A stretch of DNA of 64,000 bases from an uncultured Gammaproteobacteria bacterium (lineage in GTDB: Bacteria > Patescibacteriota > Patescibacteriia > UBA1558 > UBA10009), in assembly GCA_964588165.1 (NCBI GenBank), contig CAZPMS010000001.1, positions 164,722 to 228,721 of the forward strand, written 5' to 3'. The translations under genes were made by a program, and so were the position numbers. This document shows, in pieces, positions 1 through 48,640 of this stretch (within the stretch, counting starts at the first letter, position 1; each line of letters begins with the position of its first letter). The notes beneath the pieces were generated by a model. The model was given only the letters and a program-made list of their open reading frames with translations, made no database searches and was not told where the DNA came from.

Positions 1-1780
1 AATCATAAAAACTATCACTATAAACTAATTTCTTTTCTTTAATTGCTTTAACGCTGATGTTTATCGGATCATCAAGCGGAACTTTAAATTTACTGGGGTC
101 ATCGGGCAACATAGAAATAACTTTCTGAATTTTAGTGGTGTTAGAAATCGCCCCTACGCTTATGGTATTATCTTCAAAATTTATAAAACTTAAAATACCC
201 CCTATAAAACCCAGTTCTTTGCTTATTCCATCGGCAATGGTTTGCATAACTTTTTTAAAATCCAAAGACCTAGTAATTACATTTATTAAAGTCTGTAAGG
301 CGGTTAAATACTTATTCCTTTCTTCTAAATCCGCTGTTCGCTGCTCTACTAAAACTTCTAAATTGGTTTTAGCCAGCTGGACTTCTTCAAACAATTTAGA
401 TTTTTCTAAAGCCGTGGCCACCTGCGGTTCTAAAACTTCAAAAAAGTCTAAATCTGCTTGAGTAAATGGGCTTCCTGAAAGCTTATTTTCTATCAAAAAA
501 ATGCCCATCAATCCTTCTTCAGAAAATATCGGCACCACTAAAGAAATTTTTAAATCATCTAACCTTTTCTCCAACCTTTCTAAAACTTCAACTTTATCCC
601 TATTTTTTTTATCACTTTTTTTTCTGGAAATTTCTTCAGTAACCACTATCTCTTGATGCATTTTAAAAAATTCAAAAATAGTATCATCAGCTGGAAGTTC
701 CAATTTATTTTGCTCGTCTAAATTTTCATAACTTTTACCGTCATTTTTCAAAATTAAAAATGTAACTTTATGAAGCTTAATTCTCTCCTCTAATTTTATA
801 GTTAACGAAGATAATAATTTTTCAAGATCCAACTCTTTGGCTAAAATTTGGCCGGTTTCCCTTAATGCATCCTGATAATCTATCTTAGCTTTAAAGAAAA
901 ATTTATCTGTTAAGCTGGAAAGTAATTTTTTTAGAGGATCTAAGCCAATAACTATAATAAGTGAAACAAATAAAGTTACCCAAATCTGCCCTTGGCCTTC
1001 AAAAAACTGGGCTGATGAGAAGGTTATGAAAGTAAATGAAAGAGCAACAGTAAGAATTAAGATGAAATATAAAATACTTCTGGAAATAACAAACCGAATA
1101 TCCATGAGACGGTATTTTATTATTGCATATGAAATTAATATTGGATATATCGGGATAATAAAATTTCCATAAGGAGGAATTAAAATATCAAACCAAAGAA
1201 AAAAATTAAAAAAACCACCCGTTAACGCAATTAGACAAGCTATAGTTACATACTTTATTTGACTTTTTAAGTAACCCGATGTTTTTCCATAATAATTAAT
1301 CAATAAAATACCTGCATATACTGTAAGTAATAAATAATATAAAATATAAAATTTATATAACGGCCCAGCATTGGGCCAAAATGTAAAAAATAATTTTTGC
1401 TGAACACTTTCAACTAATAGAGGAGTGAAAAAATTAAAAAATGTAAATACTACTGCAACAATATATGAAATAACAAAAATCAACCTATTAAATTTTTTAA
1501 TTACTAAACCTTTAAAAATCAATGAAATCCATTGAACAAATAATACAGGTATCCAAATTGAGCCAATTGTTAAAAACTTTAACCAAAAAATTGCATTATC
1601 ATAATTATCATATTCTAATAACCACCTCCAATAACCAAACGACCAAAAAGCTGTGCAGAATGTTAACAACGAAAAAATTATATTAGAAAAATTCTTTCGT
1701 TTAACTAAAACAAAAATACTTATAAATAAAAAAACAATAAAGTTAATTAAACCCGAAACTGCAAAAATAAATTGATTCAT
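1..1780 (-). CDS. Membrane sensor protein, partial (C-terminus beyond window start). It has about 7 N-terminal TM helices followed by GAF-like and coiled-coil regions, so it is likely the N-terminal part of a sensor histidine kinase.
   Basis: By-eye translation of the minus strand from the ATG at 1780 gives MNQFIFAVSGLINFIVF... and a long stop-free frame running to position 1. It is absent from the ORF track because it is truncated at the window edge. There is a hydrophobic N-terminal third, then hydrophilic domains. Confidence 0.5.
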   Translation of the reverse strand, partial: MNQFIFAVSGLINFIVFLFISIFVLVKRKNFSNIIFSLLTFCTAFWSFGYWRWLLEYDNYDNAIFWLKFLTIGSIWIPVLFVQWISLIFKGLVIKKFNRLIFVISYIVAVVFTFFNFFTPLLVESVQQKLFFTFWPNAGPLYKFYILYYLLLTVYAGILLINYYGKTSGYLKSQIKYVTIACLIALTGGFFNFFLWFDILIPPYGNFIIPIYPILISYAIIKYRLMDIRFVISRSILYFILILTVALSFTFITFSSAQFFEGQGQIWVTLFVSLIIVIGLDPLKKLLSSLTDKFFFKAKIDYQDALRETGQILAKELDLEKLLSSLTIKLEERIKLHKVTFLILKNDGKSYENLDEQNKLELPADDTIFEFFKMHQEIVVTEEISRKKSDKKNRDKVEVLERLEKRLDDLKISLVVPIFSEEGLMGIFLIENKLSGSPFTQADLDFFEVLEPQVATALEKSKLFEEVQLAKTNLEVLVEQRTADLEERNKYLTALQTLINVITRSLDFKKVMQTIADGISKELGFIGGILSFINFEDNTISVGAISNTTKIQKVISMLPDDPSKFKVPLDDPINISVKAIKEKKLVYSDSFYD

Positions 1781-1784
1781 ATTT

Positions 1785-2561
1785 TTACTTAACACCGCTT
1801 ATAAGATAAGCCTGTTTTGCAAAAACCCTTTTAATTTTTACATCTCTAAAGCCAACCTCACTCATTAATTTATACAATAATTCTTTACTTAGAAAATGGT
1901 AAATTCCTTTTTTACCATTTAGTTGAATCTTGTTCGCATAATTTAATATCCTTGGACCAAAATAAATATATTGTGGGGTTAAAGGATTAAGTAATTCCCT
2001 CCAAGAAGCGATAAAAACTTTATAAAATTTTACGTTGTCGATAGGTGTTGTCCAAATTATAGTACCATCATTTTTTAATACTCTATACATTTCTTTTAAT
2101 GCCATCTTTAATGCCTCGTTTCCAACAAATCTATTTTCAAAAATAATTATATAAGATAAAACTAAATTTGCTATAACACCATCAAAATAACTATCAAAAA
2201 AAGTTAATTTATGCGATAAATCAACGTGTTTAATCTCAACATTCGCTCTTTTTTTCATTCTTTGAGTGGCCTGATCTAACATAACACCGTCAAAATCAAT
2301 ACCATAAACCTTGTAAACTTCCCTTTGATTCTTTAACAGTAAATCTATCATTGTACCTGGTCCGCAACCAGCATCAAGCCAAATTTTACGATTTTCTTGC
2401 GAAACAATGATACTTATTTCTTCTAGCATTTTTTTATATGGAGTGGCACCCTCTAAATACTTATAAATTTTTCCATAACTATTCCAAAATTTAGCTTCTT
2501 TCTCCCAAAAGCTTTTATTCTCATTTTTTATTGTTTTATCCTTATCTAAAAATAGTTCCAT
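1785..2561 (-). CDS. Class I SAM-dependent methyltransferase
   Basis: LDAGCGPGT glycine-rich SAM-binding motif (motif I), about 258 aa; immediately upstream of the sensor gene on the same strand. Confidence 0.7.
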   Translation of the reverse strand: MELFLDKDKTIKNENKSFWEKEAKFWNSYGKIYKYLEGATPYKKMLEEISIIVSQENRKIWLDAGCGPGTMIDLLLKNQREVYKVYGIDFDGVMLDQATQRMKKRANVEIKHVDLSHKLTFFDSYFDGVIANLVLSYIIIFENRFVGNEALKMALKEMYRVLKNDGTIIWTTPIDNVKFYKVFIASWRELLNPLTPQYIYFGPRILNYANKIQLNGKKGIYHFLSKELLYKLMSEVGFRDVKIKRVFAKQAYLISGVK

Positions 2562-2648
2562 ATTTCCTTAATTCTACCAAAAAAAGGGGTTTTCAGCAAA
2601 ATAAAAAACCAGCAACCTCTGCTGGTAAATTATCTAAATAATTTTAAC

Positions 2649-3419
2649 TTAAACTGATTGGATAAACTCATTAATTTTATTAAATATTATATCCTTTCTT
2701 TTAGAAGTAAGCGGGTTGTGGTTAACATCATCCAACATTAAAAGTTCTTTTTCAGAAGAATTAATTTTATCGTAGACAAATTGGGAACTCAAGGGATGGG
2801 TAATAGAATCATCCCGTGAATGGATTATAAGTGAAGGCATTTCTATTTTATGCAATTCTCTTTTAGTATAATTATTTATAAAGCTATAAAAATCATAAAC
2901 ATTTTTTGTTGGCACCATAACATAACAACCGCTATCTTCATATTCATACAAATATTCTTTTTTTACGTATTTTTTCTTATATTTTTTTATAAAAAGGTGG
3001 AAAAATGGCATTGCCATCTTAATTAATAATTCCTTCCTTAAAAAAACCGAAACCCCCATAGTGGTTATACCATCAACAATATCAGGATATCTGGCTGCCA
3101 AATCTAAAGACAAATTACCGCCAAAAGAATAACCAACTAAAAAAATTTTTTTAAATCTTTTGGAAGAATTTTTTAATTCATTTTCAACTGTTTCCCACCA
3201 GTCAAAATAAGAAGTTTTTTCCAGCTGGGTCCAATGGGAACCATGGCCAGCTAAAAGTGGCACTTTTACTGAAATGCCTTTAGAAACTAAAAATTCCGCT
3301 AATTCTTTCATATCATAAGGGCTCCCGGTAAAACCATGGACTAAAATAGCTAAGGTACCTGAGCCTGCATCAATAAAAAAAGGCTTAGCTTTCTCTCTAA
3401 TTTTGGTATTACTCTGCAT
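2649..3419 (-). CDS. Alpha/beta-hydrolase fold esterase/lipase
   Basis: HGFTGSP oxyanion region and GYSFGG (G-x-S-x-G nucleophile elbow) motifs. Confidence 0.7.
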   Translation of the reverse strand: MQSNTKIREKAKPFFIDAGSGTLAILVHGFTGSPYDMKELAEFLVSKGISVKVPLLAGHGSHWTQLEKTSYFDWWETVENELKNSSKRFKKIFLVGYSFGGNLSLDLAARYPDIVDGITTMGVSVFLRKELLIKMAMPFFHLFIKKYKKKYVKKEYLYEYEDSGCYVMVPTKNVYDFYSFINNYTKRELHKIEMPSLIIHSRDDSITHPLSSQFVYDKINSSEKELLMLDDVNHNPLTSKRKDIIFNKINEFIQSV

Positions 3420-3463
3420 AATTTACCTAAAATTAGCAAAAAAACAAAACTTTGTCAATATAT

Positions 3464-3718
3464 TTATTTTTCTTTTTTAGGCTTTTTTAAATGGCTTTGA
3501 TATTCTTTATCTTTAGTAATAGCCTCATCTATCATTTTTCTTAAAAAATCAGCTTTACTTAGCTTTTTTTGAAAAGCTTTTTGTTCCAACCATCGATTCA
3601 TAGTTTTTGAAATCCTTAGCGTATATTTAACGTGTGCGCCTAAAATCACTTTTTCTTTTGGTAAATACTCATCAACTATTTTTTTTATTTTTAATATTGC
3701 AATATCTATTTTATCCAT
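3464..3718 (-). CDS. Small basic hypothetical protein; possible DNA-binding accessory protein of the adjacent recombinase
   Basis: 84-aa ORF, Lys-rich, directly downstream of the serine recombinase gene; no recognisable motif. Confidence 0.3.
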   Translation of the reverse strand: MDKIDIAILKIKKIVDEYLPKEKVILGAHVKYTLRISKTMNRWLEQKAFQKKLSKADFLRKMIDEAITKDKEYQSHLKKPKKEK

Positions 3719-3890
3719 AATAATTCTTAATAATAAGGCAGTTTAGTATAGTTCGACGACCCTAAAATTACCATAGCCTCTTTTTTTTATTATGTCAATT
3801 TTTACTCCCATTCAAACCTAATTGAAATTACGATATTAACTGATGGGAAATTATCATTTTTTACTCGTTCTGACGATTTTACCCAGTTGC

Positions 3891-5663
3891 TTATTTTTCA
3901 AACATAATACAACTATTATTATAAGAATTCATTATCTTTGCTCCAATATTATCAAAATCTTTAATATTTCTAACAGGATTTCTGACCCAAACACCATTTT
4001 CTCTATAATTTACCCATAATTTAAATACATTAAACTCAATCTCAAGAAAAGAATATTTAGTTTTATAAATAACCCTTTTCTTCGTAATTACTTCTTCAAC
4101 ATCTTTTATGCCTAATAAAAACCTTCTTATATTACCGAATAAATTATGAACTTCCATAATAACTCTTCTGTTAATTAATTCACCAAGCACATATTGGTCG
4201 CCGATTTTCCTCTTTAATAGTTTTCCTTTATTGATTAATCTTGAATTTACGTTAAAATTTATTTTTTCATACTTTAAATCAAAATTAAACTTAATATATC
4301 TAATTGACTCCGAATTTGAATCTAAACTTTGATTATTAAACTCATTTTTATTAATTGCAGGAATAGAACAGTATAACTTTAAATAATTTTTATAAACAAT
4401 AACTTTTTCAATAATTGACCTTATTATTTCCCTTTTTTGTTTAAAACTTAAACAGCTTAAAGAATTTTTATACTCAACTAATAATAATTTGTGAAAATTA
4501 TAACTTTTAAAATACAAATCCTTATCAATATAGCTATAAAGTGACTCTGGTCTAGTTAATAACTCTTTAACCTTATACCAAACAACATCATCAAGTATAC
4601 ATGTTCTAATTTGTATAGCTGGACATAATTTATCAGTTTTAAATTTTCTCTTATTAGTGCAAATATAATATTTAGTTCGATAAAAATGTTTTTTCTTAAA
4701 ATGGTTTTGTATTGATCTTGTATACGCGCGCCCACAAATGCCACATTTTAAAATTGAACGCAATAATGAATCACTAACTTTTTTAAAATTTTCTCTACTT
4801 TTAAATCTGCTATCTCTTATACTCTCTGCTCTAATAAAAACTTTTTTATCAATAATTTTGGGAACATTAATTTTTATCCAGTCTTCTTTCGGTCTTAAAA
4901 TTTTTCTAGCTCTAAATTTACTCCTGTCAGCATATTTCCTAAAATAAGTTTCACCAGTATACGCCTCATTTCTTAGTACGTGGTATATTGTATTCTGATC
5001 CCAAAATATTTTTTTATTTTTTTTCTTATGCGTACGCCTGTATGCATATTTTGTAGAAATTTTCATACCAATAATTGTTTTTTGTATTCTTCCTACGCCC
5101 ATACCTTTATTAATAAATAAATGATAAATTAGTTTTACTATCTCTGCTTCCTTTTTATTTATTATTAAATTTTTATTTTTTCTGTTGTAACCAAATGGGA
5201 CACTTCCGAACCAAGTACCTTTGTTCATAGATTTAATCATGCCGCCCACATTTCTTTCTTTGATAAGATTGCGTTCAAATTCAGCAAATGCTGATAATGT
5301 TGAAATAATTAATTTTCCAGTAGTTGTAGCTACTTCAAACGGCTCACTTACACTCCTTACTTCTATTCCTAAATTATTTAACTCGGCGATTAAATTTAAA
5401 AACATTATTTGATTCCGGGCTAATCTATCAATTCTATAAAAAACAAGGGCATCAAATTTTTTTTCTCTTGCTTCTTTTATTAATTGAGTTAATTGCGTTC
5501 TTTTTAATACATAGCCGCTCTCACCTTCCTCTCTAAATAATTTATAAAACTCCCAACCTTTTAATTCAATAAATTTTTTACAACTTTCAAACTGATTTTC
5601 TAAAGAAAATCCCTTAATTTGTTCGTCTGAGCTAACGCGGGTATATATTGCTGCTTTTTTCAT
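3891..5663 (-). CDS. Large serine recombinase (resolvase/invertase N-terminal catalytic domain plus recombinase domain and Cys-rich zinc ribbon)
   Basis: N-terminus MKKAAIYTRVSSDEQ carries the catalytic Ser motif of serine recombinases. 590 aa with Cys pairs (CGICG...C...C) typical of large serine recombinases/phage integrases. Confidence 0.85.
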   Translation of the reverse strand: MKKAAIYTRVSSDEQIKGFSLENQFESCKKFIELKGWEFYKLFREEGESGYVLKRTQLTQLIKEAREKKFDALVFYRIDRLARNQIMFLNLIAELNNLGIEVRSVSEPFEVATTTGKLIISTLSAFAEFERNLIKERNVGGMIKSMNKGTWFGSVPFGYNRKNKNLIINKKEAEIVKLIYHLFINKGMGVGRIQKTIIGMKISTKYAYRRTHKKKNKKIFWDQNTIYHVLRNEAYTGETYFRKYADRSKFRARKILRPKEDWIKINVPKIIDKKVFIRAESIRDSRFKSRENFKKVSDSLLRSILKCGICGRAYTRSIQNHFKKKHFYRTKYYICTNKRKFKTDKLCPAIQIRTCILDDVVWYKVKELLTRPESLYSYIDKDLYFKSYNFHKLLLVEYKNSLSCLSFKQKREIIRSIIEKVIVYKNYLKLYCSIPAINKNEFNNQSLDSNSESIRYIKFNFDLKYEKINFNVNSRLINKGKLLKRKIGDQYVLGELINRRVIMEVHNLFGNIRRFLLGIKDVEEVITKKRVIYKTKYSFLEIEFNVFKLWVNYRENGVWVRNPVRNIKDFDNIGAKIMNSYNNSCIMFEK

Positions 5664-5949
5664 ATTTTTTTTGTTAAAAAAATTTTTAAATATTTCAATG
5701 ATCCTTTCTAAAAGTATATTTTTTATTAAAATTTAACACAATAAAAAAGGTGAGGTTAAGAAGCTACTCGAGCTCTTACCTCACCCTATATTTGGCTTTT
5801 TTAGCCAAAATACTACTCGAGAAAAATTTTCTAAATTTTTAGGCGAAATATATTATTTTATACCCAACATTTAGAAAAGAAGTTTAAGTGGTCAAAACAG
5901 GGTCGGATTGGATTATTCTAGTCTAGCCCTGTTTTTTTATTATATCAAT

Positions 5950-5990
5950 CAAAAAACCGCCTATAAAATAAAAGCGGTTTTTAAAAAAAT
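5950..5990. terminator. Bidirectional intrinsic terminator (aaccgc...gcggtt flanked by A/T runs) downstream of gap
   Basis: Perfect 6-bp GC stem with a T-run on one side and an A-run on the other. Confidence 0.6.
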
Positions 5991-6070
5991 TTTTTTTATA
6001 ACTTCCACCATTTCCACCCCTCGGCTTTGCTCAGGGTCTTCACTATAATATCAAATAAAACTAAACAGTA

Positions 6071-27234: not shown

Positions 27235-29043
27235 ATGAAAAATAATACACAAATAGAAAATCAAGCTCAGCTAGAAAAAGTCAGGCACTCCATATCTCAT
27301 TTAATGAGCATGGCGATAATTGAACTTTATCCTAAAACCGGCCTTGGCGTCGGACCTTTTATTGAAAATGGTTTTTATCAAGACTATGATTTGTCTGAAC
27401 CAATTTCTGAAGAAATCCTGCCCAAGCTGGAAAAAAGAATCAAAGAGTTAATTAAACAAGATATTAAATTTGAACAGCATGCCATGGATTTTAAAGAAGC
27501 CTTAAAAGAATATAAACATGATCCGTATAAAACTGAGATGATTGAAAATTTAAAAAAAGACGGAGAAAAAAACGTAAGTTTTTATAAATCCGATTGGTTT
27601 GAAAATTTATGCAAAGGCCCCCACGTAAAATCTACCAAAGAAATTGACCCCAGGGCTTTTAAACTTACCTCCATTGCAGGAGCTTATTGGCGTGGTGATG
27701 AAAAAAATAAAATGCTTACCCGAATTTACGGTGTTGCCTTTGAATCAAAAAATAAACTTAATGACTATTTAAAAATGGTAGAAGAAGCCAAAAAACGCGA
27801 CCACCGGAAAATCGGCAAAGATCTGGATTTATTCACTTTTTCCGAAACTGTAGGTAAAGGCTTGCCACTCTGGACCGAAAAAGGCGCCGTTATAAAACGC
27901 GAACTGGAAAATTTTATAATAAACGAAGAATTAAAACGCGGCTATAAACATGTAGTAACTCCAGATATGGCCAGGGTGGCTCTTTATAAAAAATCAGGCC
28001 ACTATCCTTACTATAAAGATTCCATGTATCCGCCAATTAAACTGGATGAAGAAGAATTCATGCTAAGGCCCATGGCTTGTCCTCACCATTTTGAGCTTTA
28101 TTTAAGCAAACCCCGCAGTTACCGCGATCTGCCACTTAGAATCGCCGAGTTGGCTAAGCTATACCGTTACGAAAAATCTGGTGAACTGACCGGCCTAATG
28201 AGAGTAAGAAATTTCTGTTTGGCTGATTCGCATATAATTTGCGCAGATAGCAAACAGGCCAAAGACGAAATAAATAATGTTTTAAATTTAATAGAATATG
28301 TGGCCGGAGTTTTTGGACTAAAATCAGGCAAAGATTATTCTTACAGATTTTCTTTAGGTGATAGAAAAAATGATAAAAAATATTACAAAGATAATAAAGC
28401 TTGGGATAGCGCCGAAAAAAACCTTAAAGCTGTTTTAGATAAAAGAAAAAGTAAATATGTAATAGCTCCAGATGAAGCGGCCTTTTACGGCCCTAAGGTT
28501 GATATCCAGATGAAAAACGTCATGGGCAAGGAAGACACCGCCTTTACTGTACAGTACGATTTTGTAATGCCAAAAAGATTCAACCTAACCTATACCAATA
28601 AAAAGGGAGATAATCAGGAGGCTATTGTTATCCACCGCTCTTCTATTGGCGCCATAGAAAGAAGCGTAGCCTTTTTAATTGAACATTTTGCCGGCAACTT
28701 CCCGTTATGGCTCTGCCCTATCCAAGTTAAAATAATTTCGGTTGGCTCGGACCATAAAAAGTTCTGCCAGAAATTAGCTAATAAATTAATAGCAGAAGGC
28801 TTGCGCGTAGAAACTGACTTGATAAATGAAACTGTTGGTAAAAAAATCAGAAATGCTTCTAAAGAAAAAATTCCTTACACCTTGGTAATTGGTGATAAAG
28901 AACTAAAATCCCTGCCTGCTGGCAGGCAAGGTGATAAGTTGGCTGTAAGAGTTAGGGGCGAAGAAAAACTATTGGAAATTGATTATGCTAAATTCGTTAA
29001 GAAGCTAAAGAAACTGATATCTGAAAAATCTCTTGGATTATGA
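27235..29043 (+). CDS. thrS: Threonyl-tRNA synthetase
   Basis: Class II aaRS motifs (FRNFCLADSH, HRSSIGAIER), anticodon-binding C-terminus; 602 aa, so a short form lacking part of the N-terminal extension. Confidence 0.95.
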   Translation: MKNNTQIENQAQLEKVRHSISHLMSMAIIELYPKTGLGVGPFIENGFYQDYDLSEPISEEILPKLEKRIKELIKQDIKFEQHAMDFKEALKEYKHDPYKTEMIENLKKDGEKNVSFYKSDWFENLCKGPHVKSTKEIDPRAFKLTSIAGAYWRGDEKNKMLTRIYGVAFESKNKLNDYLKMVEEAKKRDHRKIGKDLDLFTFSETVGKGLPLWTEKGAVIKRELENFIINEELKRGYKHVVTPDMARVALYKKSGHYPYYKDSMYPPIKLDEEEFMLRPMACPHHFELYLSKPRSYRDLPLRIAELAKLYRYEKSGELTGLMRVRNFCLADSHIICADSKQAKDEINNVLNLIEYVAGVFGLKSGKDYSYRFSLGDRKNDKKYYKDNKAWDSAEKNLKAVLDKRKSKYVIAPDEAAFYGPKVDIQMKNVMGKEDTAFTVQYDFVMPKRFNLTYTNKKGDNQEAIVIHRSSIGAIERSVAFLIEHFAGNFPLWLCPIQVKIISVGSDHKKFCQKLANKLIAEGLRVETDLINETVGKKIRNASKEKIPYTLVIGDKELKSLPAGRQGDKLAVRVRGEEKLLEIDYAKFVKKLKKLISEKSLGL

Positions 29044-29375
29044 CCAAACAACTTAAATATTATATCTGGGCGCTGGGTTGCGCCATGAATAAAGCAGATG
29101 GCGAACGTATCGCCACTGTTTTAGATTCTGCAGATTACATTCAGGTTGATTCTGAAAACAAAGCTGATTTTATTATGGTAGTAGCTTGCTCTGTTAGGCA
29201 ATCAGGAATTGATAGAATCTTGGGTAAATTTAATGTATGGAAAAAGAAAGGCATTAAAACAATAATAACCGGTTGCGTTTTAGATTTAGATAGGCCTAAA
29301 ATGGAAAAACTATTTGATTTGGTTTTTGATATTAAAGATTTAGAAAAACTACCAAATTTGATTAAAAATTTATAA
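29040..29375 (+). CDS. miaB: MiaB-like methylthiotransferase, N-terminal MTTase domain fragment (split gene or pseudogene)
   Basis: YYIWALGCAMNKADGE matches the MTTase N-domain (ETLGCQMN-type). Ends at a TAA that is in frame with the following radical-SAM ORF. Confidence 0.6.
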   Translation: MTKQLKYYIWALGCAMNKADGERIATVLDSADYIQVDSENKADFIMVVACSVRQSGIDRILGKFNVWKKKGIKTIITGCVLDLDRPKMEKLFDLVFDIKDLEKLPNLIKNL

Positions 29376-29429
29376 TATCTGCGAAATATCCGCGGGTCAT
29401 CCGCGGGTCATCCGCGGGTCATCCGCGAT

Positions 29430-30341
29430 ATGAATAAAATAGAATACCTAGAAATAAATCCAAAACACTCTTCAAAATATAAAGCCAACGTGCCAATTTC
29501 TTTTGGGTGTAATAATTTTTGCACTTACTGCGCCGTGCCTTATACCCGCGGTAAAGAAATCTCCAGGCCTTCAGCAAAAATTATTGAAGAATGCAAAAAA
29601 TTAATAAATGACGGTTATAAAGAAATTACTTTGCTGGGCCAAAATGTAAATAGCTATGGTTTAGATTTAGATGACGAGATCAAATTTCCTGAATTATTAA
29701 AAGGAGTTGATGAAATTGAAGGTGATTTTTGGATCCGCTATACCTCTCCCCACCCTAAAGATATGAGTGATAAATTAATACAAATCATGGCCAAAGGCAA
29801 GCATATCTGCAAACAATTGAATCTGCCAATGCAGTCTGGCGATGATGAAATTTTAAAACGCATGAACCGGACTTACACTAGTCAGCATTATTTAGATCTG
29901 GTTGCTAAAATCAAACAAGCCATGCCAAATATTTTTCTATCTACCGATATTATTGTAGGTTTTCCCGGTGAAACTAAAAAACAGTTTAATAATACAGCCA
30001 AACTGTTTAAACAAGTCGGTTTTAGCATGGCCTATGTTGCCCAGTTCTCTCCCCGTCCGGGAACCCCAGCCGCCAAAATGCCGGATAATGTAACTAAAGC
30101 AGAAAAAAAACGCCGTGAAGAAAAACTGAATAAAATTTTAAAAAAATCAGCTTTAAAAATTAACAAAAAATTATTAAATAAAAAAATTTTAGTTTTAGTT
30201 GATGGGCGCGGTATTGGACGAAACGAATTTTTAACCAAAGTTACCTTTAAAGGTTCCCATGATTTAATCGGTCAGTTTTTAAAGATAAAAATAACCAAAG
30301 CTAAAAGCTTTGGTTTAGAAGGATCGATCGCTGAAAACTGA
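29430..30341 (+). CDS. miaB: MiaB-like methylthiotransferase, radical SAM plus TRAM domains
   Basis: CNNFCTYCAVPYTRG (CxxxCxxC radical SAM), C-terminal TRAM-like region; same frame as 29040..29375. Confidence 0.7.
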   Translation: MNKIEYLEINPKHSSKYKANVPISFGCNNFCTYCAVPYTRGKEISRPSAKIIEECKKLINDGYKEITLLGQNVNSYGLDLDDEIKFPELLKGVDEIEGDFWIRYTSPHPKDMSDKLIQIMAKGKHICKQLNLPMQSGDDEILKRMNRTYTSQHYLDLVAKIKQAMPNIFLSTDIIVGFPGETKKQFNNTAKLFKQVGFSMAYVAQFSPRPGTPAAKMPDNVTKAEKKRREEKLNKILKKSALKINKKLLNKKILVLVDGRGIGRNEFLTKVTFKGSHDLIGQFLKIKITKAKSFGLEGSIAEN

Positions 30342-32600: not shown

Positions 32601-33593
32601 TTAAATAATTGCGGCTTTGTTAGAAGGAAAAGTAACTGCCTCTCTAATATCAGTTGCGCCCATTATCCACTGGATAATTCTGGCCATGCCAAAACCACAA
32701 CCAGCATGAGGCACGCTCCCCTGCTTAAGCTGTTCAATATACCAGCTAAAATCATTAATACTGCCGCCCATTTTCTCCAAACGTTTAAACATTTTGGAGT
32801 TTTTTAATCGGCTTACCATTTCATCAGCCATATGGACCCTAGCTGCCGAACCAACTGCTTCTCCTCCGTAAGGCAGAATTAAATCACTGGATAAAACCCG
32901 ACCTGGATTTTCTTTATCAGGCAACATGTTAAAAAACTTTTCTACTTCGATTTCTTTGCCAAAATCATACATTGGATCCGGATAACGGGTTATAAATATA
33001 GGCTGATTGCCAAAATATTCTACCAAAATTTTTTCTCTGGCTGAACTTATGTCATCCCCCCATTCAATTTTTTCGCCTAACTCCTTAAGTTTTTCAATTG
33101 CCTCATCGTAAGTAACCTTAGTGAAAATCTTGGGGCAACTAGAAAGCCTTTTTAAATTTTCATCAGAAATCCCCAAATCCTTTTCCTTGGAAACAGCCAC
33201 AACGCTTTCGGCGATATCTTTGACAAAAAATTCAATTTCAGCGAGTAGATTATCAAAGTCGCCGGCAAATTCAATTTCCATCATCATAAACTCAGTTAAA
33301 TGGCGGTTATCAACCGAACCCTCGGCTCTAAAAGAAGGGCCACAGCAATAAACTCTTTCCAATTTTGGCACATAAGCTTCTAAATAAAGCTGTCCGGTTT
33401 GTGCCAGATAAGCCTGGCTGTTAAAAAAATTAAAATCTTTGTTAACTGCCACCTCAAAAAGGGTATTAACATTTTCACAAGCTCCGGTAGCCCTTACAAT
33501 TCTGGGCACTACCATTTCTGTATAACCTCTTTTTTCTAAGCTTTCTCTCCCTGCTTTAAGGATTTGAGAGATAAGAGTAACCTTTTTTTCCAT
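32601..33593 (-). CDS. Class II aaRS-like catalytic-core protein, asparagine synthetase A (AsnA)-type
   Basis: 330 aa with no anticodon-binding domain. C-terminal GCGFGMARI resembles class II motif 3 as found in AsnA (GGGIGQSRL); PYGGEAVGSAARVH region. Confidence 0.45.
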   Translation of the reverse strand: MEKKVTLISQILKAGRESLEKRGYTEMVVPRIVRATGACENVNTLFEVAVNKDFNFFNSQAYLAQTGQLYLEAYVPKLERVYCCGPSFRAEGSVDNRHLTEFMMMEIEFAGDFDNLLAEIEFFVKDIAESVVAVSKEKDLGISDENLKRLSSCPKIFTKVTYDEAIEKLKELGEKIEWGDDISSAREKILVEYFGNQPIFITRYPDPMYDFGKEIEVEKFFNMLPDKENPGRVLSSDLILPYGGEAVGSAARVHMADEMVSRLKNSKMFKRLEKMGGSINDFSWYIEQLKQGSVPHAGCGFGMARIIQWIMGATDIREAVTFPSNKAAII

Positions 33594-47739: not shown

Positions 47740-47796
47740 AAAACCACCTCCATATTGATTGAAGGTGGAACATCTTGTCATAGAATGAGACATTTG

Positions 47797-47869
47797 CGGG
47801 GACAGAGGGACTTGAACCCCCGACTTCCTGCATTCCATGCAGGCGCTCTACCAGCTGAGCTATGGCCCC
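47797..47869 (-). tRNA. tRNA with anticodon GGA on a class-I (short variable arm) body; identity ambiguous
   Basis: Cloverleaf read by eye: acceptor GGGGCCA/UGUCCCC (one C-U mismatch), D arm GCUC-AGCUGGUA-GAGC, anticodon arm CCUGC-AUGGAAU-GCAGG, T arm GGGGG-UUCAAGU-CCCUC, discriminator G. The scaffold resembles tRNA-Ala(GGC) but lacks G3:U70. Confidence 0.55.
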
Positions 47870-47876
47870 TATTTTG

Positions 47877-47951
47877 AGCGAGAAACCGGACTCGAACCGG
47901 TGACAACCTCCTTTGGAAAGGGAGATGCTCTACCAACTGAGCTATTCTCGC
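47877..47951 (-). tRNA. tRNA-Gly-like gene with a predicted 9-nt anticodon loop (CUUUCCAAA)
   Basis: Near-identical scaffold to E. coli tRNA-Gly (GCGAGAA-UA-GCUC-AGUUGGUA-GAGC..., T arm ACCGG-UUCGAGU-CCGGU, U73). The anticodon stem UCUCC/GGAGG encloses 9 nt, and the gene is 75 nt from position 1 to the discriminator (position 73), two more than standard. Confidence 0.5.
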
Positions 47952-47958
47952 TATTTTG

Positions 47959-48033
47959 GGCCGCTGATCGGGATTTGAACCGACGACCGCCGGAATCACA
48001 CTCCGGACCTCTACCAACTGAGCTACAGCGACC
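47959..48033 (-). tRNA. tRNA-His (GUG) with G-1 and a probable 8-nt T-loop
   Basis: Extra 5' G pairing with C73, anticodon loop GUGUGAU (U33, GUG, A37). The T region GUCGG-UUCAAAUC-CCGAU has one extra nucleotide, and there is a G10:G25 mismatch in the D stem. Confidence 0.6.
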
Positions 48034-48065
48034 ATAAAGAACAAACGTAATAAAAAAATATTAGA

Positions 48066-48095
48066 TTATAATTAAATTTTTGTCAAATAAAAAAG
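48066..48095 (-). promoter_or_regulatory. Putative promoter of the tRNA cluster (minus strand: TTGACA-17-TAATAT); duplicated at 48549-48582
   Basis: The reverse complement of tataattaaatttttgtcaaataaaaaag gives TTGACA ... TAATAT. An approximately 30-bp near-identical copy lies upstream of the 130-aa gene. Confidence 0.45.
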
Positions 48096-48102
48096 CCCTG
48101 AC

Positions 48103-48495
48103 TTAATTATAGCAGGGCTCTCCTTGCGGAAAAATGTCACCAAGCGAATAGCTCTCGGTAATGGAAGATCCGTCGGCCTGGACTAAAACTCCCGGCATAC
48201 GGAAAGGTTTTATTGTTAACATATCAAAGAAGTCTTCGGCGAAGTCTTCTTCTTCCCAGGCCTGACGAGTTTTCAGATCAAAATTTCCGTCGGCCTCAAT
48301 ATCCAAATAATTCTGAAGGTTGCGTACTGAATAGGCAGTAACTTCTTCATAAATAGCATTAACCTGCTGGTCTTCATCGGCATGACCAAATGCTATGAGC
48401 AACATTTGCAACACTGCAACTGGCAAACCGGAAGAACCTATGCCGTTATGGTCTTGGGGTCCATCACAGGAATGATCTCCAAATAACTGTTTCAT
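48103..48495 (-). CDS. Hypothetical acidic protein, GC-richer than the genome, flanked by duplicated promoter-like segments
   Basis: 130 aa; TAGGAGGA Shine-Dalgarno; hairpin terminator (agccctg...cagggct) at 48095-48120. Confidence 0.45.
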   Translation of the reverse strand: MKQLFGDHSCDGPQDHNGIGSSGLPVAVLQMLLIAFGHADEDQQVNAIYEEVTAYSVRNLQNYLDIEADGNFDLKTRQAWEEEDFAEDFFDMLTIKPFRMPGVLVQADGSSITESYSLGDIFPQGEPCYN

Positions 48496-48548
48496 TTGAA
48501 TATCCTCCTAAATGTTTGAATTTTGAATAATACGAGGTTTTAAAACCT

Positions 48549-48582
48549 TATAATTAAACATTATTTTTGTCAAATAAAAAAC
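48549..48582 (-). promoter_or_regulatory. Putative promoter of the 130-aa gene (duplicate of the tRNA-cluster promoter segment)
   Basis: tataattaaacattatttttgtcaaataaaaaac versus tataattaaatttttgtcaaataaaaaag at 48066-48095. Confidence 0.45.
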
Positions 48583-48640
48583 CGTCGAGTTTAGCTCAAG
48601 CGGTACCCACTAACTACAGGTTACTAACCTGCCTCATCGG

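Follow-up and report, generated by a model that had tools for sequence, protein, structure and literature searches.

The 64,000-nucleotide window analyzed here (positions 164,722 to 228,721 of contig CAZPMS010000001.1, assembly GCA_964588165.1) contains exactly three tRNA genes, which lie next to one another on its minus strand and encode a tRNA-His, a tRNA-Gly(UCC) and a class-I tRNA with the anticodon GGA. Their sequence is real, all three carry structural deviations, and the block in which they reside is specific to this lineage. Taken together, the evidence leads us to view them, on balance, as an accessory and partly degenerate three-tRNA operon whose GGA member is an orphan with its former identity erased; the charging status of the three tRNAs, their redundancy and the relaxed selection acting on them are what we infer from their anatomy and context. 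The codons that these tRNAs would read (UCY, i.e., UCC and UCU; GGA; and CAY, i.e., CAC and CAU) retain their standard meanings. What is new here is a variant that combines known phenomena, namely an accessory tRNA operon and an anticodon-shifted tRNA.

A compact operon of three tRNA genes

ARAGORN called tRNA-His(GUG) at 48032-47958, tRNA-Gly(UCC) at 47951-47876 and a "tRNA-Ser"(GGA) at 47869-47796, and each of the deviations that the original prediction had read by eye was recovered in the three tRNAs returned. The genes span 47959-48033 (tRNA-His, whose cloverleaf is also its minimum-free-energy fold), 47877-47951 (tRNA-Gly(UCC), 75 nt) and 47797-47869 (the GGA tRNA, 73 nt), and they score 45.2, 60.2 and 62.6 bits, respectively, against the tRNA model RF00005. 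All three thereby exceed the gathering score of 29 over the full length of the model (positions 1-71 of 71), as canonical elongator tRNAs do; the canonical geometry, in which the anticodon stem has 5 bp and its loop 7 nt, the T loop also has 7 nt, and the acceptor and D stems are fully paired, is not preserved. None of the genes encodes its CCA end, and the two spacers between them are identical (7 nt, CAAAATA).

The promoter-like site TTGACA-17-TAATAT that had been proposed upstream of the genes was found at 48086-48058 on the minus strand, where a consensus scan matched 10 of 12 positions, and it ends 24 nt upstream of the G-1 of tRNA-His. At the other end, an intrinsic-terminator-like hairpin of nine pairs followed by a T-run (47744-47768, minus strand) abuts a convergent sdpI-like gene. 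Because the three genes have their own promoter-like site and hairpin/T-run, they constitute a compact transcription unit. The 19-nt promoter-like motif around the -35 box, TTTTTTATTTGACAAAAAT, has just two exact copies across the window, each of them on the minus strand and within the same insert: one (48076-48094) precedes the tRNAs, and the other (48563-48581) lies upstream of an orphan open reading frame (ORF) of 130 aa (48103-48495, minus strand), such that the shared motif links this ORF with the tRNA operon. Two other features of the operon were set aside: a match to the Rfam family YrlA over the Gly/GGA junction was sub-threshold (26.9 bits vs a gathering score of 69) and was dismissed as tRNA-like similarity, and the complementarity between the anticodons GGA and UCC was judged to be coincidence, its chance being roughly 7-10% for three tRNAs.

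A GGA tRNA with the body of tRNA-Ala

The GGA tRNA has a 5-nt variable loop (AAGUC), a discriminator G73 and the anticodon loop AUGGAAU, and in its acceptor stem G1-G4 are paired with C72-C69 and followed by a C5-U68 mismatch. The original prediction had described just such a molecule, 73 nt long, lacking G3:U70 and built on an "Ala-like scaffold", and both the RF00005 alignment and ARAGORN bear this out. Among the fetched tRNAs, those with the nearest bodies were tRNA-Ala(GGC) and Ala-type GGA variants, and its arm, GCCUGC-AUGGAAU-GCAGG, departs from the corresponding arm of tRNA-Ala(GGC) in several fetched genomes, GCUUGC-AUGGCAU-GCAAG, by the replacement of C36 with A and by one compensated stem pair. 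The anticodon loops (AUGGAAU vs AUGGCAU) thus differ at position 36 alone, and A32-U38 is kept. In both its body and its anticodon arm, the GGA tRNA accordingly resembles tRNA-Ala(GGC).

The determinants of alanine identity are missing: the third acceptor pair is G3:C70 in place of G3:U70 and the discriminator is G73 in place of A73, and the GGA tRNA therefore fails as an alanine tRNA. The long variable arm of class-II tRNA-Ser, which is the main determinant of bacterial SerRS, is likewise absent (the loop measures 5 nt), and the SerRS-type elements G73, G1:C72, G2:C71 and C11:G24 are present. The enzyme MiaA needs A36-A37-A38 to form N6-isopentenyladenosine at position 37 (i6A37) on tRNAs that read codons starting with U; the GGA tRNA has A36-A37-U38 and so lacks this context, and a miaA gene is found in the window. 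The ARAGORN label "tRNA-Ser" is based on the anticodon alone and, on the view that the operon is accessory, is wrong here. From its sequence, the GGA tRNA is best read as a putative derivative of tRNA-Ala(GGC) in which the anticodon became GGA through C36A and both G3:U70 and A73 were lost, and it would be uncharged or at most weakly serylated. A tRNA whose alanine identity had been erased in this manner could not put alanine at serine codons and would be, at best, a weak or uncharged orphan.

Anticodon variants of human tRNA-Ala mistranslate (PMC12084884). Like these variants, and like four alanine-identity GGA tRNAs that we encountered in other genomes (L045, L047, L099 and L100; see below), the GGA tRNA combines the body of tRNA-Ala(GGC) with a change of position 36 that converts GGC to GGA. 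However, the mistranslating variants keep G3:U70 and A73, whereas it has G3:C70, G73 and the C5-U68 mismatch, and it therefore looks disarmed and unlike an active mistranslator.

Deviations in tRNA-His and tRNA-Gly(UCC)

The tRNA-His gene has the features by which HisRS recognizes its substrate, with an encoded extra G-1 (48033) opposite C73 (47959) and the anticodon GUG. It deviates in a G10·G25 mismatch, in an 8-nt T loop, UUCAAAUC (the RF00005 alignment places the insertion in the T loop), and in G32, a purine where a pyrimidine is usual; G-1:C73, the extra T-loop nucleotide and the clash between positions 10 and 25 had all been anticipated. The tRNA-Gly gene carries the complete identity set of GlyRS, with U73, C35, C36 and the pairs G1:C72, C2:G71 and G3:C70, and the discriminator and acceptor part of this set, already recognized in the original prediction, is present in both the alignment and the ARAGORN drawing.

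The anticodon arm of the tRNA-Gly, UCUCC-CUUUCCAAA-GGAGG, can be read in two ways. In one, a 5-bp stem encloses a 9-nt loop (RF00005: five loop nucleotides vs three in the consensus), to which the ViennaRNA fold adds an A26:U44 pair, so that the stem becomes 6 bp long. In the other, which is that of ARAGORN, the loop is the 7-nt UUUCCAA and an additional C·A layer closes it, with the uppermost U·G pair of the stem displaced into the connector and variable regions; 2 nt then separate the D stem from the anticodon stem, and the variable region measures 6 nt. The 9-nt loop as first described thus stands insofar as the stem UCUCC/GGAGG does enclose CUUUCCAAA, but ARAGORN reads the same nucleotides as a canonical loop with a C·A layer; under both readings, two extra nucleotides flank an otherwise normal tRNA-Gly(UCC) loop. 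The D loop, AGUUGGUA, in which the GG is kept, and the T loop, GGUUCGAGU (UUCGAGU), are normal.

Such deviations are rare. Among 172 reference tRNAs (the ARAGORN calls in the fetched loci), 171 have a 7-nt T loop and only six have G32, and the RF00005 scores of the three tRNAs (62.6, 60.2 and 45.2) are at or below those of 13 tRNAs from relatives (49-73, median ~69). In a survey of 1.7 million bacterial tRNAs, 94.2% of anticodon stems were of 5 bp and 5.6% of 4 bp, with other lengths making up 0.2% (PMC13092985). The tRNA-Gly is like the unconventional stems of that survey in having a terminal mismatch (as drawn by ARAGORN) or an altered helix length; however, those cases are mostly 4-bp stems in arms of normal length, whereas the arm described here has two additional nucleotides and either six layers or a 9-nt loop. 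It falls into the 0.2% class of "other lengths", a class for which that survey shows no function. Because the identity elements for histidine and glycine are intact, charging and triplet decoding are expected of both tRNAs. They would probably still be processed, charged with histidine and glycine, and employed as ordinary triplet decoders, if likely less efficient ones, and the 8-nt T loop of the one and the C·A layer (or 9-nt loop) of the other would represent tolerated defects and no new decoding devices.

A lineage-specific block in a variable spot

The window is ordinary chromosome, with a G+C content of ~35% and with dnaE, thrS, miaA, gatB, thyA, folA, tmk, pheST, gyrB and corA as well as secE-nusG-rplK-(DUF5671)-rplA, prfA/prmC and rpsB-tsf; some relatives were sourced from 0.1-0.2 µm groundwater filtrates. 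The low G+C content, the DUF5671 gene and these filtrate sources, together with a group I intron beside the tRNAs of a relative, suggest that the organism belongs to Patescibacteria. The orphan ORF and the tRNA operon together form a 0.9-kb insert (47740-48640) between gyrB/corA and sdpI/secE. The orphan ORF has a weak match to PG_binding_1 (24.8 bits vs a Pfam cut-off of 23), and among 5.8 billion proteins it matched only itself and a 77-aa fragment that is identical over 25% of the query.

We fetched 80 related loci with NusG, and none of them holds the tRNA cluster; only a few hold unrelated tRNAs. L126 and L129, whose NusG proteins are 91% and 89% identical, are the two closest relatives with both flanks; in them, corA is separated from the convergent sdpI-like gene by ~190 bp and ~100 bp, respectively, with no ORF and no tRNA between them; the orphan ORF was not found in either relative, and no tRNA remnant was detected at the site even at E<=10. 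Likewise, there is no tRNA between gyrB and secE in any of the 33 related loci that have both genes, and in ~14 of these 33 the gap amounts to only ~100-240 bp; the differences in this gap among related loci indicate that the interval is a variable spot. The operon is, then, absent from sister lineages at the same locus, as an accessory operon would be. There are no other tRNAs in the window or in the ~18 kb beyond its ends (~10 kb and ~8 kb).

Searches for a donor returned little. The exact anticodon-arm patterns yielded two non-tRNA matches and zero matches, and a looser pattern gave 120 chance matches, none to a tRNA; BLAST against phage and plasmid collections found only generic tRNA similarity (~71%), and no relative of the orphan ORF was present in IMG/VR. 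When ORFs overlapping the tRNAs on both strands were compared with the set of 5.8 billion proteins, they matched either ordinary tRNA-His overprints from unrelated bacteria or nothing. The neighboring genes are housekeeping genes, with no mobile-element context that would point to a donor.

The region itself recurs without change. Five assemblies, which stem from different samples and were made by different pipelines (ENA ERZ23499079, JGI 3300009374, Logan SRR9166048, Logan SRR8062333 and ENA ERZ23498905), share the 363 bp delimited by the upstream terminator and the downstream hairpin at 100% identity; the tRNA-His gene is also present in a sixth, and the flanking 8-14 kb are collinear at 100% identity between assemblies.

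Standard decoding of UCY, GGA and CAY codons

We aligned the codons of PheT, GyrB, CorA, SecE, NusG, L11, L1 and five less conserved neighboring ORFs with the 80 related loci. The fraction of serine in the relatives' columns was 0.41 for TCT (n=29) and 0.49 for TCC (n=20), compared with 0.30 for TCA and 0.47 for TCG; columns occupied by GGA codons were glycine at 0.66 and those occupied by CAT codons histidine at 0.73. Of the 16 columns in which serine reaches 80% or more in the relatives, UCY codons fill nine, among them invariant serines of GyrB, NusG and SecE, and they thus neither avoid conserved serine columns nor align with some other residue, as would be the case had they been reassigned. 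Codon usage matches that of the closest relatives (GGA/Gly 0.14, UCC/Ser 0.20), with no sign, relative to them, of a gained GGA tRNA or of a weak tRNA-Gly(UCC).

The ORFs of the window that were annotated with Pfam have full-length domain architectures under translation table 11, and no gene requiring a frameshift was seen among them. A MiaB-like methylthiotransferase (29040-30341; UPF0004, radical SAM and TRAM domains) is split by an in-frame TAA (29373-29375), beyond which lie ~3.6 copies of a GC-rich 11-nt tandem repeat, ATCCGCGGGTC (~29385-29427), and an in-frame ATG at 29430. The codon alignments, the codon usage and the intact ORFs together therefore give no sign of UCY reassignment, of strong mistranslation or of a need for frameshifting.

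The original prediction had likened the tRNA-Gly to quadruplet-reading or frameshift-suppressor tRNAs, an analogy that finds no support: the arm can be read with a canonical loop, GGA codons align with glycine, and the one broken gene that was noticed is interrupted by an in-frame TAA. The tRNA-Gly suppressors of the sufD type in Salmonella have an 8-nt loop with one extra nucleotide next to the anticodon and a 4-base anticodon. The present tRNA is similar to such suppressors in being a glycine tRNA with, in one reading, an enlarged anticodon loop, but differs from them in that its UUUCCAA loop stays intact between the extra C and A and in that no gene in need of a frameshift was seen.

Accessory operon or essential decoders

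We propose that a real, self-contained operon, consisting of a promoter-like site, tRNA-His, tRNA-Gly(UCC), the GGA tRNA and a terminator, would have been added along with the orphan ORF at a variable spot of a low-GC, probably Patescibacteria, chromosome, and that its three genes most likely represent supernumerary tRNAs that diverged from the consensus under relaxed constraint. The accessory context, the several rare defects per gene and the Rfam scores below the clade median together favor partly degenerate accessory genes over essential, specialized decoders. There are precedents for this arrangement: supernumerary tRNA operons that mix chargeable tRNAs with pseudogenes are documented, for example the trn operon of Anabaena PCC 7120, one of the tRNA arrays disseminated by horizontal transfer (PMC8421152). 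As in those accessory operons, we find a co-transcribed block that occupies a variable location, is absent from sister lineages and appears to combine chargeable with non-functional tRNAs. Unlike the L-arrays of 26-43 genes (PMC8421152), however, it has three genes; it is chromosomal and presumably supernumerary, and searches gave neither hallmarks of a plasmid, an integrative and conjugative element or a phage nearby nor a donor.

Several observations weigh against this proposal. Both flanks of the insertion site are available in no more than two relatives, whose common ancestor may have lost the block; the operon could hold the only genes for tRNA-His and tRNA-Gly(UCC); and the retained identity elements, the encoded G-1, the strong promoter and terminator and the identical CAAAATA spacers are as compatible with genes that are selected and expressed as with recent duplicates. 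No donor was found in phage, IMG/VR, plasmid or metagenomic searches, nor through ORF overprints. In addition, all assemblies represent a single clone (their identity is 100% across as much as 14 kb), and there is therefore no population or comparative signal on constraint.

An alternative is that the operon holds the only tRNA-His and tRNA-Gly(UCC) genes of the genome, relocated and fully functional, with deviations that are lineage quirks tolerated by a fast-evolving, reduced translation system, and that the GGA tRNA is a UCY decoder remolded from tRNA-Ala and charged by a SerRS acting through G1:C72, G2:C71, G3:C70, C11:G24 and G73 without the long arm. The intact histidine and glycine identity sets with the encoded G-1, the operon's own promoter-like and terminator-like sites, and the ~82 kb without any other tRNA are all in keeping with it, as are the differences from tRNA-Ala at positions 70 and 73 (U70C and A73G), both of which are toward the acceptor pattern of tRNA-Ser, and an anticodon that reads heavily used serine codons, including those at invariant serine sites. 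However, since the block occurs in none of the 33 related loci, the relatives' histidine and glycine genes must be elsewhere, and a joint move of the three genes and an orphan ORF is a less parsimonious event than their addition; three independent rare defects in one operon are not expected of single-copy essential genes; bacterial SerRS depends on the long arm, and the GGA tRNA offers U38 where MiaA needs A38; and UCY usage is not raised over that of the relatives. We consider this alternative unlikely, if worth keeping in view, and its strongest form, in which the only tRNA-His and tRNA-Gly(UCC) are competent on the ribosome and the GGA tRNA is a class-I serine acceptor that arose from tRNA-Ala by alloacceptor remolding, is decidedly improbable. 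A comparably low probability attaches to the idea of special-purpose tRNAs, serving either as backups that evade toxins or as aminoacyl donors for non-ribosomal (cell-wall cross-bridge) reactions, whose odd shapes would in the latter case keep them off the ribosome. Phage tRNAs do escape anticodon nucleases by way of changes in the anticodon loop (PMC10264068), and the deviations described here are located in anticodon arms (that of tRNA-Gly, and G32 of tRNA-His) and in a T loop; the adjacent orphan ORF has its weak peptidoglycan-binding match, an L,D-transpeptidase gene lies 12 kb away, and a non-proteogenic tRNA-Gly(UCC) is known in staphylococci (PMC7826273). The tRNA-Gly resembles the staphylococcal species in being an additional, structurally unusual tRNA-Gly(UCC) that retains its GlyRS identity, but the latter deviate in the D and T arms, whereas the D loop (with GG) and T loop (GGUUCGAGU) are normal here and it is the anticodon arm that differs; moreover, the staphylococcal species are reported only in staphylococci (PMC7826273). 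The annotated window contains no tRNA nuclease, no toxin and no Fem/MurM-type transferase domain, no counterpart was found in phage or IMG/VR searches, and histidine is no known cross-bridge residue.

Recoding by the operon, in which the GGA tRNA would insert a residue other than serine at UCC/UCU and/or the tRNA-Gly would read four or five bases and so shift the frame, is very improbable. A loop of 8-9 nt does enable engineered tRNAs to read extended codons, GGA tRNAs with full alanine identity exist elsewhere (L045, L047, L099 and L100), and four of the 33 UCY sites, vs none of 30 sites with other serine codons, fall in alanine-dominated columns of the relatives, a difference that is not significant (Fisher p about 0.1, which is an estimate and not a computed test). 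Yet the GGA tRNA is devoid of the alanine determinants G3:U70 and A73, UCY codons occupy invariant serine positions of GyrB, NusG and SecE and align with serine as well as UCA/UCG codons do, GGA codons align with glycine, ORF architectures are full-length, and the one split gene that we saw is interrupted by a stop codon and not by a frameshift. That the deviations stem from sequencing or assembly artefacts, or that the block is a chimeric join, has a negligible probability: assemblies of metagenome-assembled genomes (MAGs) can carry indels, which amounts to a prior suspicion and nothing more, but five independent assemblies agree on every one of the 363 bp and their surroundings of 8-14 kb are collinear, and the indel errors that the original prediction had offered as an alternative are thereby excluded.

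If the operon is indeed only accessory or decaying, as we favor, it would provide a clean example of an anticodon-mutated tRNA-Ala that was made harmless by the loss of G3:U70. Should it instead contain the only tRNA-His and tRNA-Gly(UCC) genes, then the ribosome, EF-Tu and the processing enzymes would have to accommodate a T loop of 8 nt and an elongated anticodon helix, a tolerance of odd tRNA geometry that, if true, bears on tRNA engineering; and a GGA tRNA that proved to be serylated would mark the first case of a bacterial tRNA-Ser that lacks the long arm.

GGA tRNAs and unusual tRNA loci in other genomes

We scanned 185,579 species genomes for the D arm of the GGA tRNA followed by UGGAA. 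Among the matches listed, which do not include the organism of the window, there are at least 19 complete class-I GGA tRNAs from scattered phyla, and many of the others are tRNA-like repeats that are truncated, or tRNAs with introns. In four of the complete GGA tRNAs the alanine identity is full (G3:U70 and A73), and the remainder include Phe-like (GAA to GGA) and Thr-like (GGU to GGA) tRNAs; their occurrence in scattered phyla indicates that one-step anticodon mutants to GGA arise sporadically. To judge from these sequences, the GGA tRNA of the window is distinctive among such variants in that it appears to have lost its alanine determinants as well.

The four alanine-identity tRNAs with a GGA anticodon come from Rhodospirillales (L045:7011-7086), Elusimicrobiaceae (L047:128-201), Actinomycetota (L099:2723-2796) and Clostridiales (L100:1891-1966). 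They either are candidates for natural mistranslation of Ser to Ala or reflect single-base errors in the MAGs, and as candidates from four unrelated MAGs they are worth a systematic census. A MAG of Magasanikbacteria (candidate phyla radiation, CPR) contains a tRNA-Thr(GGU)-like molecule (GCC... acceptor, U73) with the anticodon GGA that adjoins a tRNA-Val(UAC) (L070:5386-5459), and a Solirubrobacterales MAG holds a tight off-consensus array of two tRNA-His(GUG), a tRNA-Thr(UGU), a class-I GGA tRNA and a tRNA-Met(CAU) (L105:6159-7013), which resembles actinobacterial accessory tRNA arrays.

In many loci of Chitinophagaceae/Sphingobacteriia, tandem arrays with a period of ~80 nt are situated directly upstream of a genuine tRNA-Ala(GGC) (e.g., L014:5578-5917, L054:6412-6650, L068:7033-7760, L104:741-1000 and L120:2699-2990). 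Each unit of these arrays joins the 5' half of a truncated tRNA-Ala-like sequence, GGGGGGTTAGCTCAGTTGGCTAGAGC, to a different hairpin, GTCCCGATGGAA(A)TCGGGAAGGTC, and is not called by ARAGORN. Several loci of Saccharibacteria (L074, L075, L084, L094 and L111) have tRNA 5' halves that are broken right after CUGGAA, and these interrupted halves fit the intron-containing tRNAs reported for Patescibacteria. In a relative, a group I intron (Rfam, 85.7 bits) adjoins a tRNA cluster (L203:3827-4038).

Other features of the window

Three further regions of the window were recorded. Positions 1-6000 have a G+C content of 26-28%, vs ~35% elsewhere, and include an ORF (3891-5663) for a 590-aa large serine recombinase with Resolvase, Recombinase and Zn_ribbon_recom domains, located 42 kb from the tRNA operon; this low-GC segment may be an integrated mobile element. 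Between 10647 and 13247, five small ORFs of similar size (131-146 aa) follow one another on one strand; of the three that were scanned, one matches PDDEXK_3 and the other two match nothing in Pfam, and the five may form a paralogous cassette array. Finally, the ORF at 32601-33593, ~3 kb from gatB, encodes a 330-aa class II (D/K/N-type) aminoacyl-tRNA synthetase core without an anticodon-binding domain, which is EpmA/PoxA-like or AsnA-like.

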